Source: Candidatus Kaiserbacteria bacterium
Lineage (GTDB): Bacteria > Patescibacteriota > Minisyncoccia > Phycocordibacterales > UBA2100
Length of the DNA stretch: 64,000 nt
Reading direction: 5' to 3'
NCBI GenBank assembly: GCA_016432285.1
Contig: CP066682.1
Location: 730,274-794,273 of the forward strand
Shown: one piece after another, positions 2,629 through 54,384 of the stretch
Layout: the number at the start of each line of letters is the position of its first letter
How positions within the stretch are numbered: position 1 is the first letter of the stretch
Notes under the pieces: generated by a model
What the model was told of the DNA's origin: nothing
Databases searched by the model: none
The model's input: the letters and a program-made list of their open reading frames with translations, nothing else
Made by a program: the position numbers and the translations under genes

Positions 2629-3303
2629 ATGAATCGCCAACCCATCGAGATCGGTGAGTGGTACCACTGCTACAACAGAGGCGTCGATAAAAGAAAAGTT
2701 TTTCTTGGACCAGGAGACTACGATCGTTTCTTGCTGCTCATGTATACGGCGAATGGTCATCTGCCCTCACACACCTTCCATCTTCGCGAAAAGCAACTAC
2801 AGAGATTCCTTGCGGAGGACAAGACGAAGCGCGACCAGATTGTGGAGATCGGAGCATATTCCCTGATGCCGAATCACTTCCACTTTGTGCTCAAGGAAAC
2901 ACGCGCGGGCGGCATCGCTCTGTTCATGCAAAAAGTACTGACCGGATACACCATGTTCTTCAACAAGAAAAACGAACGTACGGGGGCTTTATTTGCAGGG
3001 ACGTTCAAATCAAAGCACATCGACGATGACGATTACTTAAAGCTACTCATCCCCTACGTTCACCTCAACAGCGTCGAGCTGTTTGATCCCAAGTGGAAAA
3101 GCGGGAGAGGCAGCACCGCTGCCGTGCAGCAGCGAGTTTCGCAATACCCCTACTCGAGTTTGATGGATTTCATCGGCAAACCACGTCCCGAAAGGAAAAT
3201 CATTGGAGACGCGATTTTCGAACTGTATGACTCACTTCCGTCTGCACGCGAAATGCTTGACGACGCGAAGGAGTACTTCACGCAAACGAATACCGAGGTT
3301 TAA
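2629..3303 (+). CDS. REP-associated tyrosine transposase (RAYT, IS200/IS605 TnpA-like Y1 HuH family), copy 1
   Basis: 224 aa with a HuH motif (PNHFHFVLKE) and a C-terminal Tyr region (YPYSSLMDF), about 45% identical to the two other copies in the window. Flanked by cognate REPs, and its stop TAA lies in the centre of REP 3291-3311. Confidence 0.85.
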   Translation: MNRQPIEIGEWYHCYNRGVDKRKVFLGPGDYDRFLLLMYTANGHLPSHTFHLREKQLQRFLAEDKTKRDQIVEIGAYSLMPNHFHFVLKETRAGGIALFMQKVLTGYTMFFNKKNERTGALFAGTFKSKHIDDDDYLKLLIPYVHLNSVELFDPKWKSGRGSTAAVQQRVSQYPYSSLMDFIGKPRPERKIIGDAIFELYDSLPSAREMLDDAKEYFTQTNTEV

Positions 3304-6590: not shown

Positions 6591-9500
6591 ATGAAAGCTG
6601 AGTTTGCGCATCTCCACACACATAGTCACTATTCCCTGCTCGAAGCACTCCCCAAAATACCTGAGCTCGTCGACGCCGCAGTAGCCGACGGACAGAGCGC
6701 GCTCGCTCTCACCGACAACGGCAACCTCTACGGCGCGATCGAGTTTTACAAGGAGGCCAAGGCAAAAGGGATCAAGCCGATCATCGGCGTCAATTTCTTT
6801 GTGGCCCCGCGCACGCGGCACGACAAAGAGCACCGCGTCGACGACGCCCTCTCGCGCCTGCTGCTCTTGGCCAAAAATCTGGAGGGCTACCGCAATCTGA
6901 TACAGCTCGTTTCGCGCTCGCATCTCGAAGGTTTCTTCGACCGCCCCCGCATTGACCGCGAGCTTATTTCGGAGCATCGCGGGGGTCTCATCGCAATCCT
7001 GCCGTCGTACGGCGGCAACCATGCGCACGCACTTCGCCATGGCGCACCCGATCGGGCGTCGCAGGAAATTGAATGGATGAAAAAAGTGTACGGCGACGAC
7101 CTCTACCTCGAGATCACCACGCACCCGGAGATCGACACGCACGAAGATGAGATGCAAAAGATCGTGGAGCTTGGGCGTGCGCAGGGCGTAAAGCTCGTGG
7201 CCGCGCACGATGTGTACTACCTTCGCGAAGACGACGGCCTCGCGAGCGATCTTGTCAACAAAATCCGCACCGGAAGTACTCTCCAGCGCGACGTCGACAC
7301 GGTGCGGCGCGACTTTTCCTTTAAGAAACAAGCAGAGATGAAAAAGCGTTTCGCAGATCTTCCGGAGGCCCTGCACAACAACGCCCGCATCGCCGACATG
7401 TGCGATCTGGAACTGACGCTCGGCTCCTGGGTCTTCCCCGATTACCCCGTGGAAAAGGGCTCGAGCCACGATGGGGAGCTGCGCTCGCTCGCGCACCAAG
7501 GATTCAAGACGCGCGGCGTGCCGGAGAGTGCAGAAAATAAGGAGCGGGTAGAGTACGAACTCTCGATCATCGCCAAAAAAGGCTACTCACCCTACTTTCT
7601 CGTGGTCGCCGACCTCTTGCGGCACGCGCGCGAAGAAGGAATCCTCACCAACACCCGTGGGTCCGCCGCCGGCTCTCTGGTCTCCTACCTCTGCGGGATT
7701 ACCACCGTGAATCCGCTGGAGTACCAGCTCCCCTTCGAGCGCTTCCTCAATCCGGAGCGCCCCTCTCCTCCCGACATCGACATGGACCTCGCCGACAACC
7801 GCCGCGACGAGCTGATCGCCTACGTGCGAAAAAAGTATGGCGAAGAGAAAGTCGCGCAGATCGGCACCTTCGGCACCATGATGGCGCGCGCCGCAGTGCG
7901 CGACGTGGCGCGCGCGCTCGGACTTTCATACGGCACGGGAGATGTGATCGCGAAAATGATCCCTTTTGGGAAGCAGGGCTTTCCCGTCTCGATCGAATCC
8001 TCGCTCCGGGACGTACCCGAGCTCGCCAAAGCGCAGAAGTCTGATCCGACAGTGCGCGAGGTGTTGGATCTCGCGCAAAAAATCGAGGGCAACGCGCGGC
8101 ACGTGGGCGTGCATGCAGCAGGCGTGGTGATCGCTCCCACTGCGGTAACGGATTTCTCACCGGTGCAGCTCGATCCGAAGGGCGGCAAGATCATCACGCA
8201 GTACGACATGTATGCGGTTGAGGAAGCGGGACTCCTCAAGTTCGACTTCCTCGGTCTCACCAACCTCTCGGTCTTGGCCGATGCGGTGTCGCGCGTGAAA
8301 GAGCGCATCGGTGTGGAGGTCGATCTCGATCGGCTCCCGCTCGACGACAAAAAAACCTTCGAGCTGCTCTCGCGCGGCGAGACGCTCGGCGTCTTCCAGC
8401 TCGCGGGAGGCGGCATGACGAGCTACCTTGTCGACCTCGAGCCTTCCTCGATCCACGACATCAACGCCATGGTGGCGCTCTACCGCCCGGGCCCCATGGC
8501 TTTTATCCCCGCGTACATCGAGCGCAAGAAAAATCCGAAGCTTGTGAAGTACCTCGATCCGCGCATGGAGCCGATTCTCAAAAAATCGTACGGCGTCATC
8601 ACCTACCAGGACGACGTCTTGGAGATCGCGATTAAGCTTGCCGGCTACTCGTGGCTTGAGGCGGACGGTTTCCGCAAGGCCATGGGCAAGAAGATCCCGA
8701 AGGAGATGGCCGCACAGAAGGAGAAATTTACCAAAGGCTGCGTTGCGGGCGGCATGAAAAAGGAGACTGTGCAGAAAATCTGGGAGCAGATCGAGACATT
8801 CGCCGCCTACGGCTTCAACAAGGCGCACGCCGCAAGCTACGGCAACCTTGCCTACAAGACCGCGTACATGAAGGCCAACTTCGCGGTCGATTACATGGCC
8901 GCGCTCCTCACGGCCGACGCGGGCGACGTGGAGAAGATTTCGGAAGCTGTGGCGGAGTGCAAGCGCCTGGAGATCACCGTGTGGCCGCCGTCGGTCAAGG
9001 AGAGCGCGGGCACTTTCACGGTGATCGACGACAAGAATATCCGCTTCGGACTCTACTCGATCAAAAACTTCGGCACCGGCGTCGCTGATTCGATCATCGC
9101 GGCACGCCAAAAAGACGGGCCCTTCAAAGACATTGCCGACTTTCTTTCGCGTGTTACCGACAAGAATCTCAACCGCAAATCACTCGAGTCGCTGATCCAG
9201 TGCGGCGCCTTCGACGACATGGGGATCACGCGCGGCGAGCTGATGGCCAACATCGAGACACTGCTCACCTTCCACCGTGAGCACCTCAAAGCGCCGCAAG
9301 ACCAGGGCTCGCTTTTCGGCGCGCTCGCTCCTGCGAAGATCTCGCTCTCGCTCGAAAAAGCGCAGCCGGTACCGCTCGACGTGCTGCTCGAATGGGAGAA
9401 GGAGCTCCTCGGGCTCTACGTGTCGGGCCACCCGCTCGACAAGCACAAAGATAAGCTCACGCGCCAGAAGATGGACATCAAAACCGGCAAGGAAAAGTTC

Positions 9501-22552: not shown

Positions 22553-22627
22553 TGTTTGAGTTTTAAGTATAGCAGATTTTGGGGCAAGATGCTACCGTGG
22601 AGTGGGGCAATTTGCAGGGAGCAGACG

Positions 22628-23047
22628 ATGAAAATGATCTTTGGCGGGCTACTGCTTGCGGCTCTTTCGGCGACACCCTCGAATGCGACTGTCGTGATAA
22701 CCAACGATCCGGGAGGCCGTATCGAGGACTATGTCAAACGTCTTTCGTCGCTTCGCGCACAGGGCGAAGAGTTCATCATCGACGGACCGTGCATCTCGGC
22801 GTGCACGCTCATCGTCGCGATAATCCCGCTCAAACGCGTCTGCGCAACCGGACGCTCAACGCTTGGTTTTCATGCAGCATGGAATCCAGGATGGTTCGGC
22901 CAGCAAGTGCCGAATGCGGAAGCGACGCGCGCGTTGATGAAGCGTTACCCGCGGCACGTTCGGAGAGTCATCGCAAAGAACGGCGGCCTCACGTCAAAGA
23001 TGTTCTTCGTGAGCGCGGCCGAGGTCGGCATCAGCCAATGCCGGTAG
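22628..23047 (+). CDS. Small secreted hypothetical protein (139 aa)
   Basis: ATG at 22628 with a GGGAG RBS. Signal peptide MKMIFGGLLLAALSATPSNA. Followed by a perfect terminator. Confidence 0.5.
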   Translation: MKMIFGGLLLAALSATPSNATVVITNDPGGRIEDYVKRLSSLRAQGEEFIIDGPCISACTLIVAIIPLKRVCATGRSTLGFHAAWNPGWFGQQVPNAEATRALMKRYPRHVRRVIAKNGGLTSKMFFVSAAEVGISQCR

Positions 23048-23058
23048 CGAACAATGCA

Positions 23059-23094
23059 ATTCGCGGGAGCAAACCTCCCGCGAATCTGTTTTCG
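23059..23094 (+). terminator. Rho-independent terminator
   Basis: Perfect 11-bp stem attcgcgggag/ctcccgcgaat with loop caaac, then ctgttttcg. Confidence 0.7.
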
Positions 23095-23162
23095 CAACCT
23101 AACCTCACTCGACGTACACGACCTCGGTAAAGTACGAGCGGATAACGACCCGCTTGTAGAAC

Positions 23163-24974
23163 CTATCGGATCTCGAAGCCCTTTGCGGCGAGCTCCTTCT
23201 GTACCCGATCCATCACGGCGTTGGCCTCCTCGTCGGTGAGTGTCTTTTCGAACGATTGGAGCACGAGCCGGAAGGCGTACGATACCCGCCCTTCTTTTTT
23301 GAACTGGTCGAAGAGCTCGACATGCCGCAGGAGCCCTTGTGAATGTGCCGCGAACAGGCTGATGACCTCGGTAAAGGAGTTGGAAGTGTCGGGTACCCAC
23401 ATCGAAATATCGCGCACGATGAAGGGATACTTCGAGAACGGCTGATAGCGCTCAGTCTGAGAGATCGGCAGGTCGTCGTACCGCTCTGCCGCCATCGCTT
23501 GAAGGAGTGCTTCTTTCATGCCGGATGAGTCTGCGCTGCCTACCATCGTGAGCTCTTTGCCCCCCTTCCAGACCGTACCGATCTCGAAGAGCTTCACTTC
23601 CTTGAGACCGAGGAGATCGCGACTGCGCGCATTGCGCTCAAGGGCCTCCCGGAGACCGTCCACGAGCGTGGTCCGCAGGTACGGCCGCTCGCCGCCTACC
23701 TTGTTGAGGACCGCGCGCTCGCCCTTTTCGGCAAAGACCGACGTGTACACCTCAGAATAGCCCTTCGATACAAAATCTTCCCGCACGCGCTCTGCCGCAT
23801 AAAAGTGCGCATTGATTTCGGGCTTTTTTGAAAACGGCGGCAGCGGCGTAGCAGGCACCTTCTCGTACCCCACGATGCGGCCGACCTCTTCGATCAAGTC
23901 CTCTGGTCCGCCGGCTGGCGGATTCAGATCGAGTCGTTGGAACGGCACGTCGATGGCGTATTCCCCATTTTTGTTCCGATACGTGAGGGCGAGCTTGCGG
24001 AACACACTTTCCACCTCCGATGCATCGAGATTCGTGCCGAGCACCTTGTTGATTTTCTCGAGCGAGACGGAGACCGTCTTTCTTTCTTGCGGCGCCGGAT
24101 ATTCGTCGACGAAACCGTGCAGCTCACCGCCGGCGATTGCGGCGACGAGATCTACCGTTTGTCGGAGTCCGTACGCACAGAGCTCGGGAGAAATGATCTG
24201 CTGGAAACGATCCGACGCGTCCGTGCGCAGCTTCAGCGCCTGGGACGTTTTGCGGATCATGGGGCCGTCCCAATTCGCCGCCTCCAGAATCACGTCGACG
24301 GTGGTCTCGTCGATACCGGTTGGCTTGCCACCCTTTATGCCGGCGATGCTGACTGCTTCCTTGGTGTGCCCGTCGGCGATCAGTAGCGTCGAGGGAGTGA
24401 GCGCGTATTGCTTATCGTCGAGGCCGAGCATCTTTTCTCCCGATTTCGCGCTCCTGACATGGAGAAAGTAGCCGTCTTTCTGCGTGAGTCTCCGGGCATC
24501 GAACGCATGCAGCGGTTGGCCCGTGTTGAACATGACGAGATTGGTCGCATCGACGACGTTGTTGATGGTTTTTTGCCCGACCGCATGGAGCGCTTCCACG
24601 AGCCACTCTGGCGATGGGCCTACTGTAATGCCCGTTATGTACGCCGCGGTAAAGCGCTTGCAGAGATTTGTGTCGTCAATCAAGACTTTCACCGCATCAG
24701 TCTTTTGTGAGAGATCCGGCAATTTCGCGAGCGGATCGCGCTCCGCGTTGAGCGGTATCTCCAAAATCGCCGAAAGCTCCGCTGCGATGCCACGGTGCGA
24801 CAGGCAATCATGTCCGCGATTGGGCGTTACTTTTACATCAAGCACATCGTCGCTGCCGACTTTCTCGACACTCTCGATTTCAAACGCGTGAAAAGTAAGC
24901 GCGTCCGCCAATTGTTCCGCGCTCGGAAGCGGTGCCTCAAAATAATTCTGGAGCCAATTTCTGGAGATTTTCAT
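23163..24974 (-). CDS. pheT: Phenylalanyl-tRNA synthetase beta subunit (603 aa, lacks the N-terminal tRNA-binding domain)
   Basis: PheT B3/B4 and B5 regions, a class II-like catalytic-like domain, and the C-terminal FDX-ACB anticodon-binding domain (...HVELFDQFKKEGRVSYAFRLVLQSFEKTLTDEEANAVMDRV...). It overlaps the upstream ORF by ATGA. Confidence 0.85.
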   Translation of the reverse strand: MKISRNWLQNYFEAPLPSAEQLADALTFHAFEIESVEKVGSDDVLDVKVTPNRGHDCLSHRGIAAELSAILEIPLNAERDPLAKLPDLSQKTDAVKVLIDDTNLCKRFTAAYITGITVGPSPEWLVEALHAVGQKTINNVVDATNLVMFNTGQPLHAFDARRLTQKDGYFLHVRSAKSGEKMLGLDDKQYALTPSTLLIADGHTKEAVSIAGIKGGKPTGIDETTVDVILEAANWDGPMIRKTSQALKLRTDASDRFQQIISPELCAYGLRQTVDLVAAIAGGELHGFVDEYPAPQERKTVSVSLEKINKVLGTNLDASEVESVFRKLALTYRNKNGEYAIDVPFQRLDLNPPAGGPEDLIEEVGRIVGYEKVPATPLPPFSKKPEINAHFYAAERVREDFVSKGYSEVYTSVFAEKGERAVLNKVGGERPYLRTTLVDGLREALERNARSRDLLGLKEVKLFEIGTVWKGGKELTMVGSADSSGMKEALLQAMAAERYDDLPISQTERYQPFSKYPFIVRDISMWVPDTSNSFTEVISLFAAHSQGLLRHVELFDQFKKEGRVSYAFRLVLQSFEKTLTDEEANAVMDRVQKELAAKGFEIR

Positions 24975-25480
24975 AGAAGAGAATATCGTTTTTTACCCTC
25001 TGGTAAGACGATTTCTTGGGCCACCCCTTCACTCACTAAGTGTTCCCAAAATTTATCTCCATCCGGACTCCTCACTTGGCTTGACTGGACTCCTTTCCCG
25101 AGACGCTCCCTACATATCTGATCAATCAGTTGGATTCGGCGCTTCGCCAAGCCGGTCTTTCTGAGACCCGATTCTGTTCTTGTGCTCAAAATAGTGGGGG
25201 TCCCCTCCGTATCAAGAGTGAAAGAAGTCGTGCCAACTATATCTTCACCCACGATATCGAGAACTTTCCCGAACGTATTATTTGGCTGTTCTCCGACCAA
25301 GAGTGAGGCGAAGGTTCTGCTTCCATCAGTGTTCCGAACTACATATCTCTCAGATCCGGTTAAAAACTCACCTGCAACAGCGAATGGAAATTTTTCCGAA
25401 CCTCGATCGTTGTCGTCAATCGGTTCTAAGCAAAAACTAACCCTTACTCGCTCTGATGTTTTTTTAAGCCCTTCACTCAT
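24971..25480 (-). CDS. Orphan hypothetical protein inserted between pheS and pheT; markedly lower GC than its surroundings
   Basis: A 169-aa ORF that exactly fills the pheS-pheT gap. Its stop is 2 nt from the pheS stop, and its ATGA overlaps the pheT start. Local GC is about 47-50% by eye, against about 60% in the flanking pheS and pheT. No domain recognised. Confidence 0.45.
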   Translation of the reverse strand: MSEGLKKTSERVRVSFCLEPIDDNDRGSEKFPFAVAGEFLTGSERYVVRNTDGSRTFASLLVGEQPNNTFGKVLDIVGEDIVGTTSFTLDTEGTPTILSTRTESGLRKTGLAKRRIQLIDQICRERLGKGVQSSQVRSPDGDKFWEHLVSEGVAQEIVLPEGKKRYSLL

Positions 25481-25482
25481 AC

Positions 25483-26229
25483 CTAAAATTGATTAACGAA
25501 CCGGAGGTCGCCAGAGTGCATGAGACGCACATCATCGATGCCCCACTTCAGCATCGCGAGGCGATCGAGCCCCATGCCAAAAGCGAACCCCTGATACTTC
25601 GCGGAATCGACGCCAGCGTTCTCCAACACGCTAGGATGTACCATACCCGCTCCCATCATCTCGATCCACTTGTCGCGCAATTTCTCTGGAACACTTTCTC
25701 CAACGAGGCGCGCGTCGACTTCGACCCCCGGCTCTACAAACGGGAAAAAGCTGGGGCGAAATCGCACCTCAACTTTCGCGCCCTTAAAGATGTGCGAATA
25801 GAAGTTCTCAAGCGTCCCCTTGAGGTTCGCGAGCGAATATCCCTCGCCGATCGCGAGCCCTTCGAGTTGCCAGAATTCCGCCTCATGGGTCATATCGGTC
25901 GCTTCATTGCGGAAGGCACGCCCCGGGACGATGACACGGTACGGCGGCGGGTTTCCCTTCTTGATCTCTCGTTCCATGTATCGGATCTGGACGGGCGAGG
26001 TGTGGGTACGAAGCACGAACCCTTCCTCGCCTTGTATGAAAAACGTGTCCTGCATGTCGCGCGCCGGATGATCCTTCGGCACATTGAGGGAGTCAAAGTT
26101 GTACCATTCGCTCTCGATCAGCGGCCCCTCAGCAAGGGTAAAACCCATATCAAAAAAGATCCGGTTTGCTTCCCGGATCAGACTTGAGATCGGGTGTACG
26201 TGACCTCGCGGCGTGTCCGTCATCTTCAC
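25483..26229 (-). CDS. pheS: Phenylalanyl-tRNA synthetase alpha subunit (short, 248 aa)
   Basis: Class II motifs: FDSLNVPKDHPARDMQDTFF (motif 1 region), RTHTSPVQIRYM, and GAGMVHPSVLENAGVD...GFAFGMGLDRLAML (motif 3). Confidence 0.9.
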   Translation of the reverse strand: MKMTDTPRGHVHPISSLIREANRIFFDMGFTLAEGPLIESEWYNFDSLNVPKDHPARDMQDTFFIQGEEGFVLRTHTSPVQIRYMEREIKKGNPPPYRVIVPGRAFRNEATDMTHEAEFWQLEGLAIGEGYSLANLKGTLENFYSHIFKGAKVEVRFRPSFFPFVEPGVEVDARLVGESVPEKLRDKWIEMMGAGMVHPSVLENAGVDSAKYQGFAFGMGLDRLAMLKWGIDDVRLMHSGDLRFVNQF

Positions 26230-26315
26230 AGTATACCCATAGTGCCGATGCTTTTCTATTGAAACGCGTCGCTAGAAGAGGGCGTGTCCTTCTGGTATAC
26301 TTTTCCGCTACTACA

Positions 26316-46840: not shown

Positions 46841-47380
46841 TCAGAATTTGAACAGAACGGTGCCGATCATCTCCGAGGGCTGGATTGTGCCCCAGACCCG
46901 GCTGTCTTCACTTTGCGCGCGGTTGTCTCCCATGAGGAAATAATCTTCAGGACCCAGCTTCATTTCAAAATCCGGGCCGTTCCCCGCCTTTTCCCCTTCT
47001 TCCCATTTCTCAATGTTCGCCCCTTTCTCCTCTGCTCCCCCTTCCTCCCATTTTCCCCCTTTTCCCCTTTCTGCTGTCACCGATCCGTTCGCAATGCGGA
47101 TCGTTTCGTTCGGCAGTCCGATTACGCGCTTGAGGATGATCGGGTGCTGCGGATTACGCGGATCGCGGAACACCACCGGCGAGCCGCGGAAAAGCCCGAT
47201 AAGCCGCGGCGAGATCTTTTCCACGAGCAGGTAATCACCTTCCTGAAAAGTCGGCTGCATAGAAATTCCCGTCACGATATACGGCCGTATCAGAAAAGGC
47301 AGGAGCAAAATCAGAGTTGCAACAACGGTCAAGACTGGATCCCTCCGAATTCCTGGGAGGTTTAGCCTTCCAATTTTCAT
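46841..47380 (-). CDS. lepB: Signal peptidase I
   Basis: SPase I boxes: GISMQPT (Ser nucleophile), KRVIGLPNETI (Lys general base box) and GDNRAQSEDSRVWG. It has an unusual Gly/Glu/Lys-rich insertion (GKGGKWEEGGAEEKGANIEKWEEGEKAG). The ATG at 47378-47380 overlaps the RAYT3 stop (ATGA), and the first about 10 codons are REP-derived. Confidence 0.8.
   Translation of the reverse strand: MKIGRLNLPGIRRDPVLTVVATLILLLPFLIRPYIVTGISMQPTFQEGDYLLVEKISPRLIGLFRGSPVVFRDPRNPQHPIILKRVIGLPNETIRIANGSVTAERGKGGKWEEGGAEEKGANIEKWEEGEKAGNGPDFEMKLGPEDYFLMGDNRAQSEDSRVWGTIQPSEMIGTVLFKF
47352..47373. repeat. REP (family 3) copy at the RAYT3/lepB junction
   Basis: cctgggaggtttagccttccaa with arms gggagg/ccttcc. It lies within the first codons of lepB. 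Confidence 0.8.
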
Positions 47381-48036
47381 ACGCCGACATCTTTGTATCG
47401 TAGCCAATAATCCACATGATCCTGAACTTCCCTAGCGCTCGATAGGTACCCGGGGAAAGCTCGCGGAGAAGTAATTACGTGACGGTTGTTGATATATTCT
47501 CCCAGGCTCGAATACTGATACTCGCTTACATGTCTCTGTAGTTTCCCAAAGTCGCGTGCTCCGAATTTCTTCCAATTTGGATCTTTCAATTTGGCTGGAT
47601 TTAGATGAATATAGGAAAATAAATATTTAGCATACGCATCACCCTCCACGTGCGAGGCCTTAAACGTCCCCTGAAAAAGCGCGCCACTTCGCTCATGTTT
47701 TTCATTGAAATACATCGTATACGCAGTCTGTAGTCTCTGCATAAATTTCGAGATACCGCCGTCGACCAGCGGTGTCAGATACAGATGAAAATGATTGGGC
47801 ATCAAACAATACGCGCCTATTGCCACTAAAGAACTGGAAGGTTTAGCCTCCCAGATCCGGCTCGAGGTTTTAGAAGAGAATAGAAAATCGATTCTTTTGT
47901 TTTCTCTATCATTGAGCAGGAAAAGGTACACCAGAAATCTTTTGTACTCCGCTGGCGACATGAACACTCGGCGTTTATCAACGCCTCTATTGTAAATGTG
48001 ATAGAACTCGCCTTCTGCAAAGGTGATGCGTCTCAT
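47377..48036 (-). CDS. REP-associated tyrosine transposase (RAYT), copy 3, with a REP-derived in-frame insert
   Basis: MRRITFAEGEFYHIYNRGVDKRRVF...GAYCLMPNHFHLYLTP (HuH)...SEYQYSSLGEY (Tyr). The internal REP at 47834-47854 encodes ...RIWEAKPSSS... Its start ATG overlaps the stop of the giant upstream ORF, and its stop overlaps the lepB ATG. Confidence 0.85.
   Translation of the reverse strand: MRRITFAEGEFYHIYNRGVDKRRVFMSPAEYKRFLVYLFLLNDRENKRIDFLFSSKTSSRIWEAKPSSSLVAIGAYCLMPNHFHLYLTPLVDGGISKFMQRLQTAYTMYFNEKHERSGALFQGTFKASHVEGDAYAKYLFSYIHLNPAKLKDPNWKKFGARDFGKLQRHVSEYQYSSLGEYINNRHVITSPRAFPGYLSSAREVQDHVDYWLRYKDVGV
47834..47854. repeat. REP (family 3) copy embedded in-frame within the RAYT3 coding sequence
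   Basis: ctggaaggtttagcctcccag. The reading frame is maintained across it. It sits in the same protein loop as the embedded REP in RAYT2. Confidence 0.8.
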
Positions 48037-51000
48037 AGAGTGGGCGGATCGCGGCGCTCACTGGAAGGTTTAGCCTTCCAACGGGAGCGGGGCGGAGCGT
48101 CTACTGGAAGGTTTAGCCTTCCAGTGGGGGGCTTCCCTCTTGGGACGGGGAGGATGAAGAAGGACATGCCGATGAGGAAGGCGATGGCTTGGACGAAAGA
48201 GGAGACGACGGAGGCGGCGGAAGCGGCGGAGTATTTGAAGGGCTGCTCGGCAAATGCCATGTACACGTACGTCCCCCCGCTCGCATTTGCACCAGCTGCC
48301 GTGTTTCGCTGCTTGAACCCATTGGCGAGAAAATCCATATCGTTGCAGGACGCGGTTTCCGCTGCGTTGGACTCCAATCCAAAACACGGACTGATCGGAT
48401 TACTCGTATCTCGCGCCGCATCGTATGTATTCCAAGAGTATCCGAGCGTGTCTGTCCGTTTGATCACTACGTACTTAGGTTTGAACCCCGTGTACACAAA
48501 CGGCCCATCGGCCGAGCCGTTGCCGGTGTAGGAGCCGAAGTCGGAGAAGCCGGAGATTTCATCAAAAAGATAGGCGACATAGTTGTTGCCGCTGGTATTC
48601 ACATCAGCATTGGTACCGAGCGAGAAGACGGATGCGGTCGGCGCGGTGTCGTTCCAGTAGGTGGCATCGTCGGCGGTCGCGGCTGTGCCGTTCATCAAGA
48701 GGTAATCGGTCTCCGGCGCTGAAGTATTGGCAGCGTGGTAGACCGCCCAGTCGTTGGTCGCGCCGCGGTCTTTTACGATCATAAATTCTGGTGCAGAAGA
48801 GAGCGAATGGCTGATTGTGCGATTGGCACCGGTGCCGGCGTACGGCACGATATCGAATCCGCTCGTCGGATCTTCCTTCCAAAGCCACGAGATGTAGTTG
48901 TTGCCGCTTGTGTTGAAGAGCGAATTTGTGCCGAGCGTGAAGCCGTTTTCCAAGAATGCGGTGAGTGCCGATGCCGAGCTCGTCTCAATCGTCGTCGCGT
49001 TTGAAGAAAGATACGGAAACGTACTGCGTAGCGAATCGAAGAGCCCGTGCGCATTCGCGCTCGTTCTGTCTTTTATCCATGTGAGCGTCGGCGTGAAGTC
49101 GAGCCCCGTCACCGAGAGCGCGGCCCCCGTCCCCGTGTACGTGAGCGCATCGAAGTAATCATCGGGCTGCGTAATCGTCGGCGTAGGAAGATTCGTGGTC
49201 GAGAGGGCTTTGAAATCCGTCGGTGGTGCGTATTGGAAGTACCCTCCTGCCGATGAGCGGTATGGAAGTACCGTTGCTGTTGATGTCGGCGAAGAAGACT
49301 GGCCGAAGTTGAAATTGTACGAATGAGTCTGCCCGCTGGTTTGGCCAGCACCCGCGCCAATGAAGAGCGGGCCAGTGAGACCAGTAAATGCCGAGTTCGT
49401 GCCCGCTGCCGGATCACCGCTCGCCTGCCACGTGCCATTTTTTGAAAACCAAATCTTTCCGTTATCCAAATCGAGCGCAACGCCAATAACGTCGTTGGTC
49501 GTAAAGGTGTCGCCATAGGCGCTGTCACTGCTGCTATTTCGCTTGTTTCCACCACCTGCGTACGTGTACGCGAGATAATTGCTCTCGAGAATACAGTTTT
49601 GAACGGATGACGCGCCGATGAGATATCCTCCGCTAACGCCCGTAGTTCCGGTCGGGACGATCTCGGCGTACCATTTGCCCGATGTGGGTCCGATGGAAGA
49701 GCGACCGAATGTATAACAAGCCGGCGACGCGGGAAAGCTGTCTATCGTTGCCGTGAGGTTTCCTTGAGCAGCCGTCAGATCACTCGACGAATTTGCCAGT
49801 ATGTTTAGAGTCGCAGACCCATTCGTCGGGGAATCCTTGACGTTGTCGGTCGCGTCGAGGTTGTTGGCCGTCCAGTCATTGTTGTTGCTACTCGTATCGT
49901 CGCCGGGGCTGGTGGAGGTGAGCGGCAGGTGGAATCCATTAGTGCCATACGTCCCCGAATATGTCTTCGGTCGCCAGTAGCCCGATGCGTCGTATTCGCC
50001 GAAGTCGGAGGGGGTGAGTGCTTGTCCGTCGATGGCGTAGAAATCCGCAAGGTAGCCGTCGTAGTAAGAGGTCCCGCTATGCTGTTTGCCGAAAGCGTGT
50101 ATGACATTGTCGAGAACGTTCACGTCCGAGTTTTGCGTCATTGATGTATAGCCGGAGCCCGACCACGTTTGTGCAACGCCATTGACCCAAAGCCGGATTC
50201 TATCCGCGGCAGTTGCCTGCGTACTGTCTACGGTAAAGACAATGTGGAGCCACGCACCTGGATCGCGAAACTTCGCGTTTGTTGTATAGCTCCAGGTCTC
50301 ATTACCTGCATAGCCATACAACGTATCGCTGGTCGTAAACCGGAGGCCGTCTGCCGAGTATGCCGACCAGTTGATAAGAAATTGCTCGGTCCCCAGATTT
50401 GCCCGCTTGACCCAAAAGCTGAACGTCGCTGTCTTGCCCGCACCCGTCCCCGCAGATGAGAACGTTTTGGTTAGACTCGCACTATCGTCATCATTGAAAC
50501 GCGTGCTCGATGCGATGGTGAGGTTGTACGCTTGCGCGGATTGCTGGAAGGGCTGTTCGGCGAATGCGGCGTAGACGTACGTGGCACCACTGGCATTGTA
50601 GTTGGCATCCGTCGCACGCGGCTTGAATCCGTTTGAGAGAAAATCCATCTGCCTACTTGATCCGTCGTCTGCGTTTGTCAGATTGGCGTAGATCATGATG
50701 TCGCGGAGATTACCGTCGCCAGCAGCGCTACGTCGGTTGTCCCAGATGTACCAGCCGTTCGTTGAGGCACTGTCGCTTCTTTTTACAAGCAAGAACGCCG
50801 GCTTGAATCCCGTATACACGAACGGCCCATCGCTTGAGCCGTTGCCGGTGTAGGAGCCAAAAGATGAGTAGCCGGTGGTAGAGGCGAAGAGGTAGGCGAC
50901 GTAGTTGTTGCCGCTTGTATTTACATCCGCGTTGGTGCCGAGCGAGAAGACGGATGCGGTCGGAGCCGTATCGTTCCAATATGTAGCGTCGTCGGCAGTT

Positions 51001-53891
51001 GCCGCAGTCGAATTGAGAAGCAGGTAATCGGTCTTTGGGTCAGAGGTGTTTGCGGTGTGGTACACCGCCCAGTCGTTGGTGGCACCGCGATCTTTGATGA
51101 TCATAAAGTCGGGGGCGACACCGAGCGAGTGGCTCACGGTGCGATTGGCTCCCGTGCCCGTGTAATTCACGATGTCGAAGCGCGAGGTCGTGTCTTCTTT
51201 CCAGTTCCAGCTCACATAATTGTTGCCGCTCGTGTTGAAGAGCGCATTGGTGCCGAGGGTAAATCCATTCGAGAGGAAGCTCGTGAGCGTGGTCGAGGCA
51301 CCGCCGGTCTCCGCCGTCGTCGCATTGGACGAGAGGTACGGGAAGACGGAGCGGATGGCATCGAAGAGCCCGTGCGCGTTCGCGCTCGTGCGGTCTTTAA
51401 TCCAGACGAGGGAGGGGGTGAAGCCGAAGGATACGCCGGTCGAGACGTAGGTAATTTTGATGATGCCTTGCGCCCCCGCGCCGCCATTGCCCGTGGTCGT
51501 TCCTCCATATCCGCCCGAGCCGCCGCCGCCGCCGTAACTGCCCCCGTTGCCGCCGGCCGAACCGGTCGGCTCTTGCCCCGAACCGCCGGCGCCACCGCCA
51601 CCAGAGCCATGAGTGGCGTCCCACTCGGTACCGTTACCTCCGTTGCCGCCCGCCGCCCCCGCCACACCAGTGCCTCCGGCACCGCCTAAACCATTACCGC
51701 CCTGCCCGCCACTGGTGCCTGCAACTCCAGCACCAAGACCTGCAGTGCTAACGCCATCGGCACCCGCACCACTTGGGCCGCCGGCGCCACCACCACCCTG
51801 CCCGGCATAGTTGTTGGAGATATAGCCGCCTGTCCCGCCATTATATTTCGTACTCCCTACTGAAGCCGATGCAAGCCCGCCGGCTCCGGAACCCGTCAAG
51901 TAAACTGCACCATTGCCTGCCTTTGCACACACCGAAACAGTGTCGGCACAAGTGTTTGCTGACCCCGATGTCCGATTAAAGAATGTATCTGTTCCGGCAC
52001 TACCGTTCGACCCGTTGGTCGCGCCGCCTGCACCTCCTGCACCGACCTGAAAAGTGACGTTCCCGCCGGGAGTAAGAGAAAGATTTGATACTTTTGAATA
52101 AGCTCCGCCGCCGCCGCCGCCGTGGTCGCCATCGGCAGTCCCATCACGAACGCCGCCGCCGCCGCCGCCGATTACCTCAATAGTGTTGCTCGCATTGCCC
52201 CAATCGCTCGGCACCTGCCAAGTTTTGGCCGTCGTGTCCGTGAGATATACCGTGACGGTTTGCCCGGCAGTAGATGCGGCTGCCCGCGATACAGACTGTG
52301 CGGCGCCGCTACCCGTGTACGCCACCGCGTCAAAATAATTCTTCGGCACCGTGACCGCCGGCTCCGGAAGATTGGCAGTAGAAATTGCTTTGAACCCCGT
52401 CGGAGGCGTGTACATAAAGTAGCCGCCGGCTGCCGAGTCGTAGGTAAGTGTCGTTGCGGTGGAGGTCGGATTTTTGGATTGCCCGAAAATCAGATAGCTT
52501 TCCGTACTTCTGCTTACTCCAGCATCCATTCCTACTACCGGAAAAATCGGCGTGGTGGTGGAGATGTTGGAGAAGGCGGCATTTGTGCCCGCCACCGGAT
52601 CGGAAGATTCAAACCATCCGCTTTCGTCGCGGACGAAGAGTTTTCCGGCATCTGCATCGATCGCAACACCTAGGGTCAGATCGAGAGAACACGTGGAGTA
52701 CGTCGGCCCATACGCCGTGAGCGTCGTGTTGTAGATGGTGCACGATTTACCGCCGGTACACGAGCCCGAATTGGCGGGTAGCCATCCCCAGCTATTCGTA
52801 GTTTGCCCTACATATTCATCTTTACTTGCGTTGGTATTTGCTACTCCTACTTCAACATTGCAAATTCCCGACAAGTTCGCACTGCGAGCTTCAAAATACC
52901 ACTTGCCGCTGGTGATACCCATCGTTGCAAAATCGGTGGCGTTGGTACCGGTCCGGCTTGAATACAGATTGCCTTGAGAGTACGTCGAGATGGAAGGCTT
53001 GTTGAGCACGTTCAGGGTCGGATACATATTGGTCGGCGTATCAACCTCTTGATCCGTCGCGTTGATATTGTTGGCGGTCCAGTCGTTGTTTTGGCCGCTC
53101 ACGTCGTTACCAAGATCCGAGCCGCTCGCGAAATCAAGCTTAAAGCCGTTGGTGCCGTAGGTTCCGGTGTAGCTTTTGGGTCGCCAGTAGCCGTTGGCGT
53201 CCGTCTCGCCAAACGACGATGGCGTCAGCGCCTGGCCGTCGATCAGATAGACATCGGAAAGGTAACCATCAAAGTATGTTGAGTTTGAGTTACCGAATCG
53301 CCCTATTGCATGTGGATCCGTGCCATTTACTCTCGTGTCGACGTTTTGCGACGGGTCGTTTGCATCGCGAGCGATTCGCTGGCCATTCACATAAAATATG
53401 ACCCTGTCACCTGCGGTAGCTGCTGTCGTGTCCACAGCGACTACCACGTGCATCCATTGTGAAGGGTCTCGAAATACCGCGGTACTTTGTGTAGTCGGCG
53501 CGTTTGAACTGCTTTCTCGGCGTTGGAATTGGAGCTTATCGGAGTTGAAAGATATCGACGTGTGATGATCACCCGCCGTTGGTTCAGCGCTAAAGAGGAT
53601 ACCGTCTGTGAGATTCGCCCGCTTCACCCATGCACTCCACGTCCACGTCTTTTTATTTCCTGCGCTACTGGGCGTGCGCGACAGTCGAGCACTGTCGTCG
53701 TCGTTGAAGCGCGCGGAATTCGATATTGAATACGCGGCTTTGGCTTCCGGAAGCTGGAGGAGCACAAATTGCGTCGCAAATATCGCCAAGGAGATGAGAA
53801 GCGCGGTCGCGATACGGTGATGCCAGAGGTATCCCCCGATTGCGGGAATATATTTAGAGTTTAAAGATTTAAATGTTGGAAGCGGGAGCAT
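48033..53891 (-). CDS. Giant membrane-anchored surface protein (1952 aa) with two LamG-like (concanavalin-A-like lectin) domains in a duplicated ~800-aa super-repeat and a Gly-rich core
   Basis: N-terminal anchor (IATALLISLAIFATQFVLLQL). Two LamG-like jelly-roll signatures (TWTWSAWVKRANL...WMHVVVAVD...VIFYVNGQ and TATFSFWVKRANL...WLHIVFTVD...IRLWVNGV). A duplicated block ending NYVAYLF...FGSYTGNGS(A/S)DGPFVYTGFKP...YVYMAFAEQPF. A central tract of about 250 aa that is more than 50% Gly (GGGGGVRDGTADGDHGGGGGGAYS...GGNGGSYGGGGGSGGYGG). The last about 40 codons are REP-derived. Confidence 0.7.
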   Translation of the reverse strand: MLPLPTFKSLNSKYIPAIGGYLWHHRIATALLISLAIFATQFVLLQLPEAKAAYSISNSARFNDDDSARLSRTPSSAGNKKTWTWSAWVKRANLTDGILFSAEPTAGDHHTSISFNSDKLQFQRRESSSNAPTTQSTAVFRDPSQWMHVVVAVDTTAATAGDRVIFYVNGQRIARDANDPSQNVDTRVNGTDPHAIGRFGNSNSTYFDGYLSDVYLIDGQALTPSSFGETDANGYWRPKSYTGTYGTNGFKLDFASGSDLGNDVSGQNNDWTANNINATDQEVDTPTNMYPTLNVLNKPSISTYSQGNLYSSRTGTNATDFATMGITSGKWYFEARSANLSGICNVEVGVANTNASKDEYVGQTTNSWGWLPANSGSCTGGKSCTIYNTTLTAYGPTYSTCSLDLTLGVAIDADAGKLFVRDESGWFESSDPVAGTNAAFSNISTTTPIFPVVGMDAGVSRSTESYLIFGQSKNPTSTATTLTYDSAAGGYFMYTPPTGFKAISTANLPEPAVTVPKNYFDAVAYTGSGAAQSVSRAAASTAGQTVTVYLTDTTAKTWQVPSDWGNASNTIEVIGGGGGGVRDGTADGDHGGGGGGAYSKVSNLSLTPGGNVTFQVGAGGAGGATNGSNGSAGTDTFFNRTSGSANTCADTVSVCAKAGNGAVYLTGSGAGGLASASVGSTKYNGGTGGYISNNYAGQGGGGAGGPSGAGADGVSTAGLGAGVAGTSGGQGGNGLGGAGGTGVAGAAGGNGGNGTEWDATHGSGGGGAGGSGQEPTGSAGGNGGSYGGGGGSGGYGGTTTGNGGAGAQGIIKITYVSTGVSFGFTPSLVWIKDRTSANAHGLFDAIRSVFPYLSSNATTAETGGASTTLTSFLSNGFTLGTNALFNTSGNNYVSWNWKEDTTSRFDIVNYTGTGANRTVSHSLGVAPDFMIIKDRGATNDWAVYHTANTSDPKTDYLLLNSTAATADDATYWNDTAPTASVFSLGTNADVNTSGNNYVAYLFASTTGYSSFGSYTGNGSSDGPFVYTGFKPAFLLVKRSDSASTNGWYIWDNRRSAAGDGNLRDIMIYANLTNADDGSSRQMDFLSNGFKPRATDANYNASGATYVYAAFAEQPFQQSAQAYNLTIASSTRFNDDDSASLTKTFSSAGTGAGKTATFSFWVKRANLGTEQFLINWSAYSADGLRFTTSDTLYGYAGNETWSYTTNAKFRDPGAWLHIVFTVDSTQATAADRIRLWVNGVAQTWSGSGYTSMTQNSDVNVLDNVIHAFGKQHSGTSYYDGYLADFYAIDGQALTPSDFGEYDASGYWRPKTYSGTYGTNGFHLPLTSTSPGDDTSSNNNDWTANNLDATDNVKDSPTNGSATLNILANSSSDLTAAQGNLTATIDSFPASPACYTFGRSSIGPTSGKWYAEIVPTGTTGVSGGYLIGASSVQNCILESNYLAYTYAGGGNKRNSSSDSAYGDTFTTNDVIGVALDLDNGKIWFSKNGTWQASGDPAAGTNSAFTGLTGPLFIGAGAGQTSGQTHSYNFNFGQSSSPTSTATVLPYRSSAGGYFQYAPPTDFKALSTTNLPTPTITQPDDYFDALTYTGTGAALSVTGLDFTPTLTWIKDRTSANAHGLFDSLRSTFPYLSSNATTIETSSASALTAFLENGFTLGTNSLFNTSGNNYISWLWKEDPTSGFDIVPYAGTGANRTISHSLSSAPEFMIVKDRGATNDWAVYHAANTSAPETDYLLMNGTAATADDATYWNDTAPTASVFSLGTNADVNTSGNNYVAYLFDEISGFSDFGSYTGNGSADGPFVYTGFKPKYVVIKRTDTLGYSWNTYDAARDTSNPISPCFGLESNAAETASCNDMDFLANGFKQRNTAAGANASGGTYVYMAFAEQPFKYSAASAASVVSSFVQAIAFLIGMSFFILPVPRGKPPTGRLNLPVDAPPRSRWKAKPSSERRDPPTL
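48061..48124. repeat. Two REP (family 3) copies at the 3' end of the giant gene
   Basis: ctggaaggtttagccttcca (48061-48080) and ctggaaggtttagccttccag (48104-48124). The giant ORF reads through both (...GRLNLPV... and ...WKAKPSS...) before stopping at 48033. Confidence 0.85.
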
Positions 53892-53892
53892 A

Positions 53893-54384
53893 TCAGGATT
53901 TTATATCACCTCCCGGTGTGTAGAGGTGTGGATGAATCTTTGAAAGCTCCTTGCGTGCATTGCGCATAAACTCTTGCGCTTCTCGCTCGTCCTTGCTCAA
54001 TTCCCGTTTGCGTTGCAAACCGCTGTGCGGAGATGATTTGAGTGCCCTGATGAACGACGCGGTAAGTCTCGATGCCTGCTCTGCCAAATCATTTAAATAT
54101 TTAAATGTTTGAATATTCAAATACCCTATGTCATTTGCGATGTAGAGCTGTGCCCGCACCTCGCCGCACGATGCTTTTGCAATATAGAGGTAATTCAAAA
54201 ACCCCTCGCGTGTTCCCGACTCAAATCCTTCCGCGATGTTTGATACGACCGATACCAAAGCTCGCTGTATTTGATCGGTGAATCCTCTATCGTGACAACC
54301 ACGAAACACCTTGTAGACTTCGCGTGCTAGTTCTCGCCCCTTTTTCCAGGCCAGCAGCTCTTCAAATCTGTGCACAGTCGCCAT
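53893..54384 (-). CDS. Four-helix-bundle protein (TIGR02436-like; the family often called '23S rRNA intervening sequence protein')
   Basis: A 163-aa protein with the characteristic pattern ...FTDQIQRALVSVVSNIAEGFESGTREGFLNYLYIAKASCGEVRAQLYIANDIGYL... Visibly lower GC than its neighbours, and wedged 1 nt from the next gene's start. Confidence 0.6.
   Translation of the reverse strand: MATVHRFEELLAWKKGRELAREVYKVFRGCHDRGFTDQIQRALVSVVSNIAEGFESGTREGFLNYLYIAKASCGEVRAQLYIANDIGYLNIQTFKYLNDLAEQASRLTASFIRALKSSPHSGLQRKRELSKDEREAQEFMRNARKELSKIHPHLYTPGGDIKS

Follow-up and report, generated by a model that had tools for sequence, protein, structure and literature searches.

Why does a separate gene stand between pheS and pheT, which encode the two subunits of phenylalanyl-tRNA synthetase (PheRS), in a member of the Candidatus Kaiserbacteria? 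The question arises from a stretch of 64,000 nucleotides (nt) of this organism (assembly GCA_016432285.1, contig CP066682.1, positions 730,274 to 794,273), hereafter the window, in which an open reading frame (ORF) for a protein of 169 amino acids, ORF169, separates the two genes. An earlier note on the locus, made from the letters alone, described an orphan with no recognisable domain and suggested a horizontally acquired insert, tolerated or co-opted within an essential operon. The answer that we favour, with a probability of roughly 60%, is that ORF169 is an accessory passenger with the fold of GNAT acetyltransferases, which occupies a permissive cassette slot in a conserved gene backbone and is expressed through the pheST operon. 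The host clade would be the Kaiserbacteria-related Paceibacteria (Patescibacteria, also known as the Candidate Phyla Radiation, CPR), with a slot that is empty in most members and holds varied, unrelated small genes in about a quarter of them.

The features on which the argument depends are the following.

25483..26229, minus strand: pheS, PheRS alpha subunit, 248 amino acids (Pfam tRNA-synt_2d, E 4e-92; TIGR00468)
25481..25482, minus strand: 2-nt spacer GT from the pheS stop codon (TAG) to the ORF169 start codon (ATG), by direct sequence reading; comparable with the 0-4 nt ahead of the pheT ATG at empty sites in relatives
24971..25480, minus strand: ORF169, the inserted gene, 169 amino acids from an ATG start, predicted to encode a divergent, minimal GNAT-fold protein of the acyl-CoA N-acyltransferase-like kind
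24971..24974, minus strand: ATGA, a 4-nt overlap of the ORF169 stop codon TGA and the pheT start codon ATG, by direct sequence reading
23163..24974, minus strand: pheT, PheRS beta subunit, 603 amino acids (Pfam B3_4, B5, tRNA_synthFbeta and FDX-ACB; TIGR00472)

Read along the minus strand, the junctions run ...CAATTTTAG GT ATGAGTGAA...CTTCTATGAAAATCTCC, and ORF169 takes up 510 of the 512 nt that separate the pheS stop codon from the pheT start codon. In NCBI, the product is the hypothetical protein HYS26_04395 of a Candidatus Kaiserbacteria metagenome-assembled genome. The gene has a GC content of 46.3%, with 0.53, 0.44 and 0.42 at the first, second and third codon positions (GC1, GC2 and GC3; GC3 41.8%), while the window as a whole has 58.8% and the GC3 values of pheS, pheT and gyrB are 0.69, 0.71 and 0.79. 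This places ORF169 at the 0.7th percentile of GC among all 510-nt segments of the window, and its GC3 is the lowest among 53 non-overlapping ORFs (z = -2.7). Thus, the observation made in the earlier note, a 169-amino-acid ORF between pheS and pheT that is AT-richer than its flanks and overlaps pheT by ATGA, agrees with the coordinates, the junctions and the exact codon-position profile in every measurable detail, and the picture of a compositionally atypical insert, flush with an essential operon and apparently coupled to it, is well supported.

The protein is an orphan in one sense only. A word-indexed protein search with ORF169 returned nothing beyond the query itself, and a search of that database with the family profile added no members. 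By contrast, an exhaustive HMMER search of 1.84 billion cluster representatives recovered 20 further proteins of 160-220 amino acids, with 28-43% identity and E values from 1e-28 to 6e-4. In the alignment of this family, G83, T102, R115 and W145 are invariant, and there is a conserved C-terminal block, G-L-[GA]-x-R-R-L...I-N...C-K...F-G...L-x-S-S...A-x-x-x-W-x-x-L-V-x-x-G-L-A. AlphaFold2 was uninformative on the single sequence (predicted local distance difference test, pLDDT, 40), but with the alignment of the 20 sequences it gave a model with a pLDDT of 92.4 and a predicted template modelling score of 0.86. The 50 best Foldseek matches of this model in the PDB are all GNAT acetyltransferases (probability of about 1.0, best E 6e-5), the closest being streptothricin acetyltransferases (3pp9, 7ypu, 5c82), N-terminal acetyltransferases of the Naa10/Ard1/RimI kind, EctA and 3d8p. 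The top 50 in BFVD, a viral library, are likewise all generic GNATs, with template modelling (TM) scores of 0.40-0.54 over the two libraries. Hence, the statement that no domain is recognisable holds at the curated thresholds of hidden Markov models (HMMs) and fails at the level of the fold, and remote homology and structure prediction together speak against a domainless orphan.

The model has the core topology of the GNAT superfamily: a mixed beta sheet, the succession beta4-alpha3-beta5-alpha4 with a long alpha3, and the C-terminal strands. It also has a motif-B-like segment, A-x-x-x-W-x-x-L-x-x-x-G-L-A, and, ahead of alpha3, a loop of the form Q/R-x-x-G-x-G/A, which is encoded as follows.

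25145..25162, minus strand: codons for R107-K-T-G110-L-A112 (RKTGLA), the GNAT motif A loop Q/R-x-x-G-x-G/A, from translation and alignment

In the model this loop lies between the strand 95-102 and the helix 111-127, with R114 and R115 after it. At least 90% of the family retain G110 and R114, and R115 is invariant; in the members inspected, the last position of the loop is always G or A, and the first is Q or R in most. On this evidence, the proteins form a predicted minimal and highly divergent GNAT-fold family that lies outside every curated GNAT family. Because of the fold and the conserved cofactor loop, the most likely activity is that of an acetyl- or acyl-CoA-dependent N-acyltransferase. 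Thus, a set of proteins that standard annotation leaves as "hypothetical" and cannot place now has a fold and a conserved cofactor motif.

These results also bear on whether the ORF might be spurious, that is, whether the 512-nt spacer is non-coding AT-rich filler or a decayed pseudogene. The poor model from the single sequence and the lack of any match to a curated family would fit such a reading. Nevertheless, the ORF spans the whole spacer, its order of GC1 > GC2 > GC3 is a coding pattern, its 20 homologues share conserved motifs and similar lengths, and the alignment-based model reaches a pLDDT of 92. A spurious ORF can be practically dismissed, and ORF169 is a genuine protein-coding accessory gene.

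Where, then, do the other members of the family sit? The contigs of 13 members, the window protein included, were examined for location, and ten of these genes (P0002-P0008, P0016, P0021 and the one in the window) lie between pheS and pheT. Such slot-resident genes begin 0-12 nt past the pheS stop codon, and eight of the ten overlap the pheT start codon by ATGA, the exceptions being L090 and L092, which have a 3-nt spacer instead (loci of ORF169 homologues with ATGA: L081-L089, L091 and L175). In comparison with the window, pheS at the carrier loci is 72-84% identical and pheT 57-79%, while the inserted gene is only 27-42% identical, and between any two carriers its identity is 49% at most. 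At every slot-resident locus its GC3 is 0.38-0.51 as against 0.58-0.72 for pheS, and it also falls below that of pheT except at L090, where the contig holds 63 pheT codons. The slot of L089 holds two genes, since an additional ORF of 90 amino acids (L089:1120-1392) precedes the ORF169 homologue; its product is charged, with an internal repeat (D/PDLNKLR..VRK) and no Pfam match.

The three most divergent members lie outside the slot. P0018 (198 amino acids; L174:1557-3209, on a Logan contig of SRR22388098) is found 30 nt upstream of trpS (PF00579), with trmD convergent, and its GC content equals that of its neighbours, unlike that of the genes at the pheST loci. P0020 stands between uvrB and uvrA, and P0019 between a tRNA gene and an alpha/beta-hydrolase gene.

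It is at this point that the low GC content has to be interpreted. If it marked foreign origin, ORF169 could be a single recent acquisition from an AT-richer donor, tolerated in one genome, in line with the idea of a tolerated horizontal insert in the earlier note. In favour of this are the dip in GC and GC3, which is real and, for the window, extreme, the empty sites of the closest relatives, and the word-indexed search, which found only the query. However, diverged homologues (27-49% identity) occupy the same position in at least 10 other distinct loci, all of them with lowered GC3, and the low identity between any two carriers implies either a long association with the slot or a diverse circulating pool. 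A recent one-off transfer is therefore very improbable. Since the slot-resident genes are all AT-richer than their flanks despite being so diverged from one another, low GC is a standing property of the family and does not signal that the gene came recently. It is well established that, in most bacteria, accessory and ORFan genes have a higher AT content than core genes. As a general caution, a single recent transfer should not be deduced from a GC dip combined with an absence of hits; in the present case, a family resident in the slot has AT-richness as a lasting trait. A phage or defence origin was considered too and rejected, as PHROGs and PADLOC gave no meaningful matches and the viral fold library returned nothing other than generic GNATs; NCBIfam was also without a match, and a search of the PDB with the sequence profile of the family found nothing.

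The passenger reading also draws on the state of the junction in other genomes. Relatives were gathered by a PheS search of genome and metagenome collections, which has no bias for or against ORF169, and the 26 with a PheS at least 66% identical are treated as close relatives. In 19 of them the site is empty, and 0-5 nt separate pheS from pheT (for instance, TTTTAG-T-ATGAAAATC in L001). The remaining seven carry a single unrelated gene, and comparable cargo is found in more distant Patescibacteria.

L005, close relative: 23S-rRNA-IVP four-helix-bundle protein
L006, close relative: SemiSWEET/PQ-loop protein
L007 and L099, close relatives: PNPOx-like proteins
L095, close relative: isochorismatase
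L101, close relative: SET-domain protein
L108, close relative: PemK/MazF toxin
L011, more distant: membrane protein of 132 amino acids
L017, more distant: thioredoxin-like lipoprotein
L019, more distant: NIF3, MjaI-type restriction enzyme and methylase

Overall, more than ten types of cargo were found. Most of these genes are AT-richer than their flanks, and several are as flush as ORF169, beginning 1-2 nt past the pheS stop codon and meeting pheT in ATGA; among unrelated cargo, the ATGA overlap is seen in L006, L095, L099 and L101. Among the cassettes, the PemK/MazF gene (L108:3724-4346) alone is surrounded by substantial non-coding sequence (about 110 nt per side), and no obvious same-strand antitoxin ORF of at least 40 amino acids accompanies it. 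None of the 26 close relatives has ORF169, which is thus a rare cargo, and all of them have an equally short PheS (236-267 amino acids) and PheT (591-658 amino acids). Consequently, the gene is accessory relative to most relatives, and neither a conserved presence nor a host-like codon usage was found: its presence is patchy and its codon usage differs from that of the host.

The pheS|pheT junction was also considered as a uniquely hot spot, an idea that had to be abandoned. The backbone GT-pheS-pheT-gyrB is conserved, with pheS and pheT flanking the site at every locus, and the divergent promoter region of GT|pheS varies hardly at all among loci. In the pheT|gyrB junction, used as a control, the gap measures 29-1446 nt (L001-L109), and 9 of 22 loci have at least 300 nt of extra sequence, so that this junction is occupied at least as often. 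Therefore, pheS|pheT is one of several permissive junctions.

How the gene reached its scattered hosts can be considered in two ways. In neighbour-joining trees of PheS, of PheS with PheT and of the N-terminal region of PheT, the carriers are dispersed and not monophyletic, and they are sister to genomes with an empty site or other cargo (L175, a carrier, with the empty L100; L086, a carrier, with the isochorismatase-bearing L095). The gene may have been exchanged among close relatives by recombination in the conserved pheS and pheT flanks, in the manner proposed for minimal mobile elements, or it may be an old insertion with frequent precise loss, which would fit the data equally well. The appeal of flank recombination is that it would account for the constant location of the core family at pheS|pheT. 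An origin of the edges by target-site duplication was rejected. The repeats TATGA...TATGA in the window and GATATG...GATATG in L006 could suggest it, yet edge repeats within loci average 5.29 nt as against 5.15 nt in the between-locus control (p 0.24). The T at -1 and the A at +4 belong to a general start-codon context that is also present at empty sites.

Several observations weigh against the passenger reading or against parts of it. The trees are neighbour-joining trees with unresolved short internal branches in a star-like clade. Among the sampled genomes, the flanks are only about 73% (3' end of pheS) and about 60% (5' end of pheT) identical in nucleotides, and the longest exact runs are typically 8-15 nt. 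The flanks of two carriers are barely more alike than others (0.63 vs 0.57-0.60), and the identity of the inserted gene is uncorrelated with that of the flanks (Spearman -0.18 and 0.10, not significant), a comparison of low power in a star-like clade. Regarding the fold, the TM-scores in the PDB are modest (0.40-0.48 over about 105 aligned residues), and the Pfam Acetyltransf_1 match of ORF169 is below threshold (13 bits as against a cut-off of 20.7; E 0.13); a weak match to the same model is present in 5 of the 20 family members (best E 5.5e-4), none at the curated threshold. Furthermore, the usual N-terminal helices alpha1-alpha2, which in other GNATs form part of the acceptor site, are not predicted in the first 43 residues, where the model has only very short helices at 23-25 and 33-36 before the sheet and low confidence in residues 1-10, and a conserved catalytic Tyr or Glu could not be assigned. 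Finally, the core family is confined to the pheS|pheT slot (ten of ten), although a generic passenger might also use other junctions, and P0018 stands near trpS, the gene of another synthetase for an aromatic amino acid, which hints at a functional tie.

These last two points also favour the alternative that ORF169 is functionally tied to aminoacyl-tRNA synthetases and is kept in the pheST operon for co-expression. Its target could be PheRS itself, Phe-tRNAPhe or an aromatic amino acid of the D- or non-protein kind, or else a non-hydrolysable inhibitor resembling phenylalanyl-adenylate, in which case the protein would confer immunity in the way of MccE2/RimL. The chance of a synthetase gene as the neighbour of P0018 is about 5%, the acetyl-CoA loop of the family is conserved, and an arms race would agree with its fast evolution (28-49% identity; pheS, 72-84%). 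There are also precedents among GNATs: MccE2/RimL enzymes acetylate processed microcin C and other aminoacyl-nucleotides (PMC8323819), and the type II toxins TacT, AtaT and ItaT acetylate aminoacyl-tRNA (PMC9177977, PMC6125619). Nevertheless, the slot also holds genes without any conceivable role in PheRS function (SemiSWEET, PNPOx, isochorismatase, SET, MazF and IVP), and ORF169 is missing from all 26 close relatives with the same short PheS and PheT. No residues of PheS are specific to carriers, and two other divergent members adjoin uvrB and uvrA or a tRNA gene and a hydrolase gene. With isoelectric points anywhere between 4.8 and 10, the family lacks a consistently basic surface to which tRNA could bind, and no model of GNAT toxins or defence systems in PADLOC or Pfam was matched. 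Thus, a tie to the synthetases is possible but doubtful, and the idea of the earlier note that the gene was co-opted into PheRS function has no direct support.

A bolder form of the same alternative holds that the family is an unrecognised minimal GNAT class, dedicated to the tRNA synthetases of aromatic amino acids (pheST and, in a distant member, trpS) and evolving under an arms race in episymbiotic Patescibacteria. We regard it as unlikely. The proteins would then possibly be immunity or proofreading factors, embedded in the operon of their target, that N-acetylate aminoacyl-adenylate mimics, mis-activated or D-aromatic amino acids, or aminoacyl-tRNA. A literature search combining pheS and pheT with GNAT or acetyltransferase retrieved no papers. 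If a GNAT of this family did act on substrates of PheRS or TrpRS, a novel type of synthetase-associated protection factor would have come to light.

The reduced size of PheRS in this clade suggests yet another explanation. The PheS of the window lacks about 60 N-terminal profile positions, which correspond to the coiled-coil arm (the TIGR00468 match covers positions 64-322 of 324), and its PheT lacks the N-terminal B1/B2 region with the OB-fold for tRNA binding (the TIGR00472 match begins at profile position 158). Short subunits are the rule in this Paceibacteria clade, with a PheS of about 236-267 and a PheT of about 590-660 amino acids (L001-L013, L016, L020, L094-L120), while loci of Peribacteria, Peregrinibacteria and Uhrbacteria (L014, L015, L017-L019, L021) encode full-length proteins of 346-387 and about 800 amino acids. 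ORF169 could therefore be pictured as an ancestral third component of PheRS, similar to a subunit, that makes up for the lost tRNA-contacting regions and has itself been lost repeatedly. Its conserved position and its apparent translational coupling would agree with this, and a few C-terminal residues (such as R442) are common to the three full-length PheT proteins of carriers and not found in 20 non-carriers, a pattern that, with n=3, may reflect phylogeny. For PheS, in contrast, no column discriminates carriers (maximum frequency difference 0.42). Relatives with the same truncated subunits do without ORF169, having either an empty junction or another gene, and compensation for the lost domains was rejected for this reason. 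Moreover, the carriers are scattered on the trees, the fold is that of an enzyme with an intact cofactor loop and not of a tRNA-binding module, and the codon composition is not host-like. A PheRS component of this kind is highly unlikely.

ORF169 would be expressed by way of the pheST operon. The ORF fills nearly all of the space between pheS and pheT, which leaves no room for a promoter or terminator of its own; it would consequently form part of the pheST mRNA. A consensus scan found no terminator-like site on the minus strand across pheS, ORF169 and pheT, and a single promoter-like match upstream of pheS.

26230..26258, minus strand: sigma-70-like promoter match TAGAAA-17-TATACT, directly upstream of pheS, a consensus match only and a candidate operon promoter

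In this arrangement, ribosomes that terminate on pheS would reinitiate on ORF169 (TAG-GT-ATG) and pass to pheT by way of the ATGA overlap, so that the essential operon would remain intact. Co-transcription with pheS and pheT and translational coupling to both are thus probable from the arrangement of the genes. An essential and translationally coupled synthetase operon in the reduced genomes of CPR bacteria can, it appears, host interchangeable single-gene cargo and stay unbroken. As a separate observation, the -10-like hexamer of the promoter match abuts the annotated GTG start of pheS (26229); translation may in fact begin at the ATG two codons further on, from an mRNA that may have little or no leader.

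Further features were noticed elsewhere in the window. Its own pheT|gyrB junction (22553..23162) contains a possible gene for a small secreted protein on the opposite strand (approximately 22640..23047, plus strand, no Pfam match), followed by a strong hairpin at 23059..23085. The other low-GC3 ORFs of the window that can be identified are of the accessory type, namely an IS200-like Y1 transposase homologue and an IVP protein. There are two paralogous ORFs for IS200-like Y1 transposases, similar to REP-associated tyrosine transposases, at 2629..3303 (plus strand; Pfam Y1_Tnp E 5e-4) and 47377..48036 (minus strand; E 1.4e-8), the second of which belongs to the island where the GC content of the window is lowest (0.43-0.44). 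The IVP gene (53893..54384, minus strand, GC 0.48) encodes a four-helix-bundle protein of the 23S-rRNA-intervening-sequence type (PF05635, E 4e-29), of the same family as the pheS|pheT cargo of L005. It lies directly upstream of a gene for a repetitive giant protein of 1952 amino acids (48033..53891, minus strand).

In comparison with known systems, the protein and its slot have to be taken separately. The MccE2/RimL enzymes and the TacT, AtaT and ItaT toxins resemble ORF169 in fold and size (about 160-180 amino acids), and ORF169 lies beside translation genes whose products make the substrates of these enzymes. By contrast, neither group is among its top 50 structural matches, and there is no match in PADLOC or to other HMMs. 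The toxins differ also in their partner, as ORF169 has no DUF1778 or ribbon-helix-helix antitoxin, its neighbours being pheS and pheT at 2 nt and -4 nt, and MccE2/RimL differ in that no microcin cluster is present at the locus.

For the slot, the closest known kind is the minimal mobile element (MME) described in Neisseria (Saunders & Snyder 2002; Snyder et al. 2007); one such site, the variable pheS/pheT locus of N. meningitidis, holds a type II restriction-modification (R-M) system (PMC3082526). The flanking pair is the same, and in both cases different whole-gene cassettes, or none, lie between conserved flanks in different lineages. In neither case do the cassettes bring mobility genes, and in both they are AT-richer than the genome around them; ORF169, for its part, comes without a transposase, integrase or attachment sites. 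However, the variation described here is among uncultivated Patescibacteria lineages at the level of species or genera, not among strains of one naturally transformable species, and most cassettes are single small ORFs flush with the pheS stop and pheT start codons, with no intergenic DNA, promoter or uptake sequences. The homologous recombination that defines MMEs could not be shown here, given flanks that are about 73% and about 60% identical.

The likeness extends to the cargo. In L019, a relative from Candidatus Uhrbacteria (DSBA01000068.1), a NIF3-family gene is followed by an R-M pair, an MjaI-type restriction endonuclease and an N6/N4 DNA methylase, in the same gap, which is strikingly similar to the situation in Neisseria, where an R-M cassette occupies pheS/pheT. 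This pair is bounded by a perfect 81-bp direct repeat of the 5' end of pheT (7366-7446 and 9043-9123) and is an insertion with a long target duplication. Insertion of R-M units with long target duplications is said to have been described in Helicobacter pylori by Kobayashi and co-workers, and the repeat in L019 resembles it, while ORF169 lacks such a duplication, its 5-nt TATGA "repeat" being no longer than in controls. Thus, the pheS|pheT junction is variable both in Neisseria and in a very distant phylum, which suggests a general property of the junction, namely that two strongly conserved and separately translated essential cistrons meet there.

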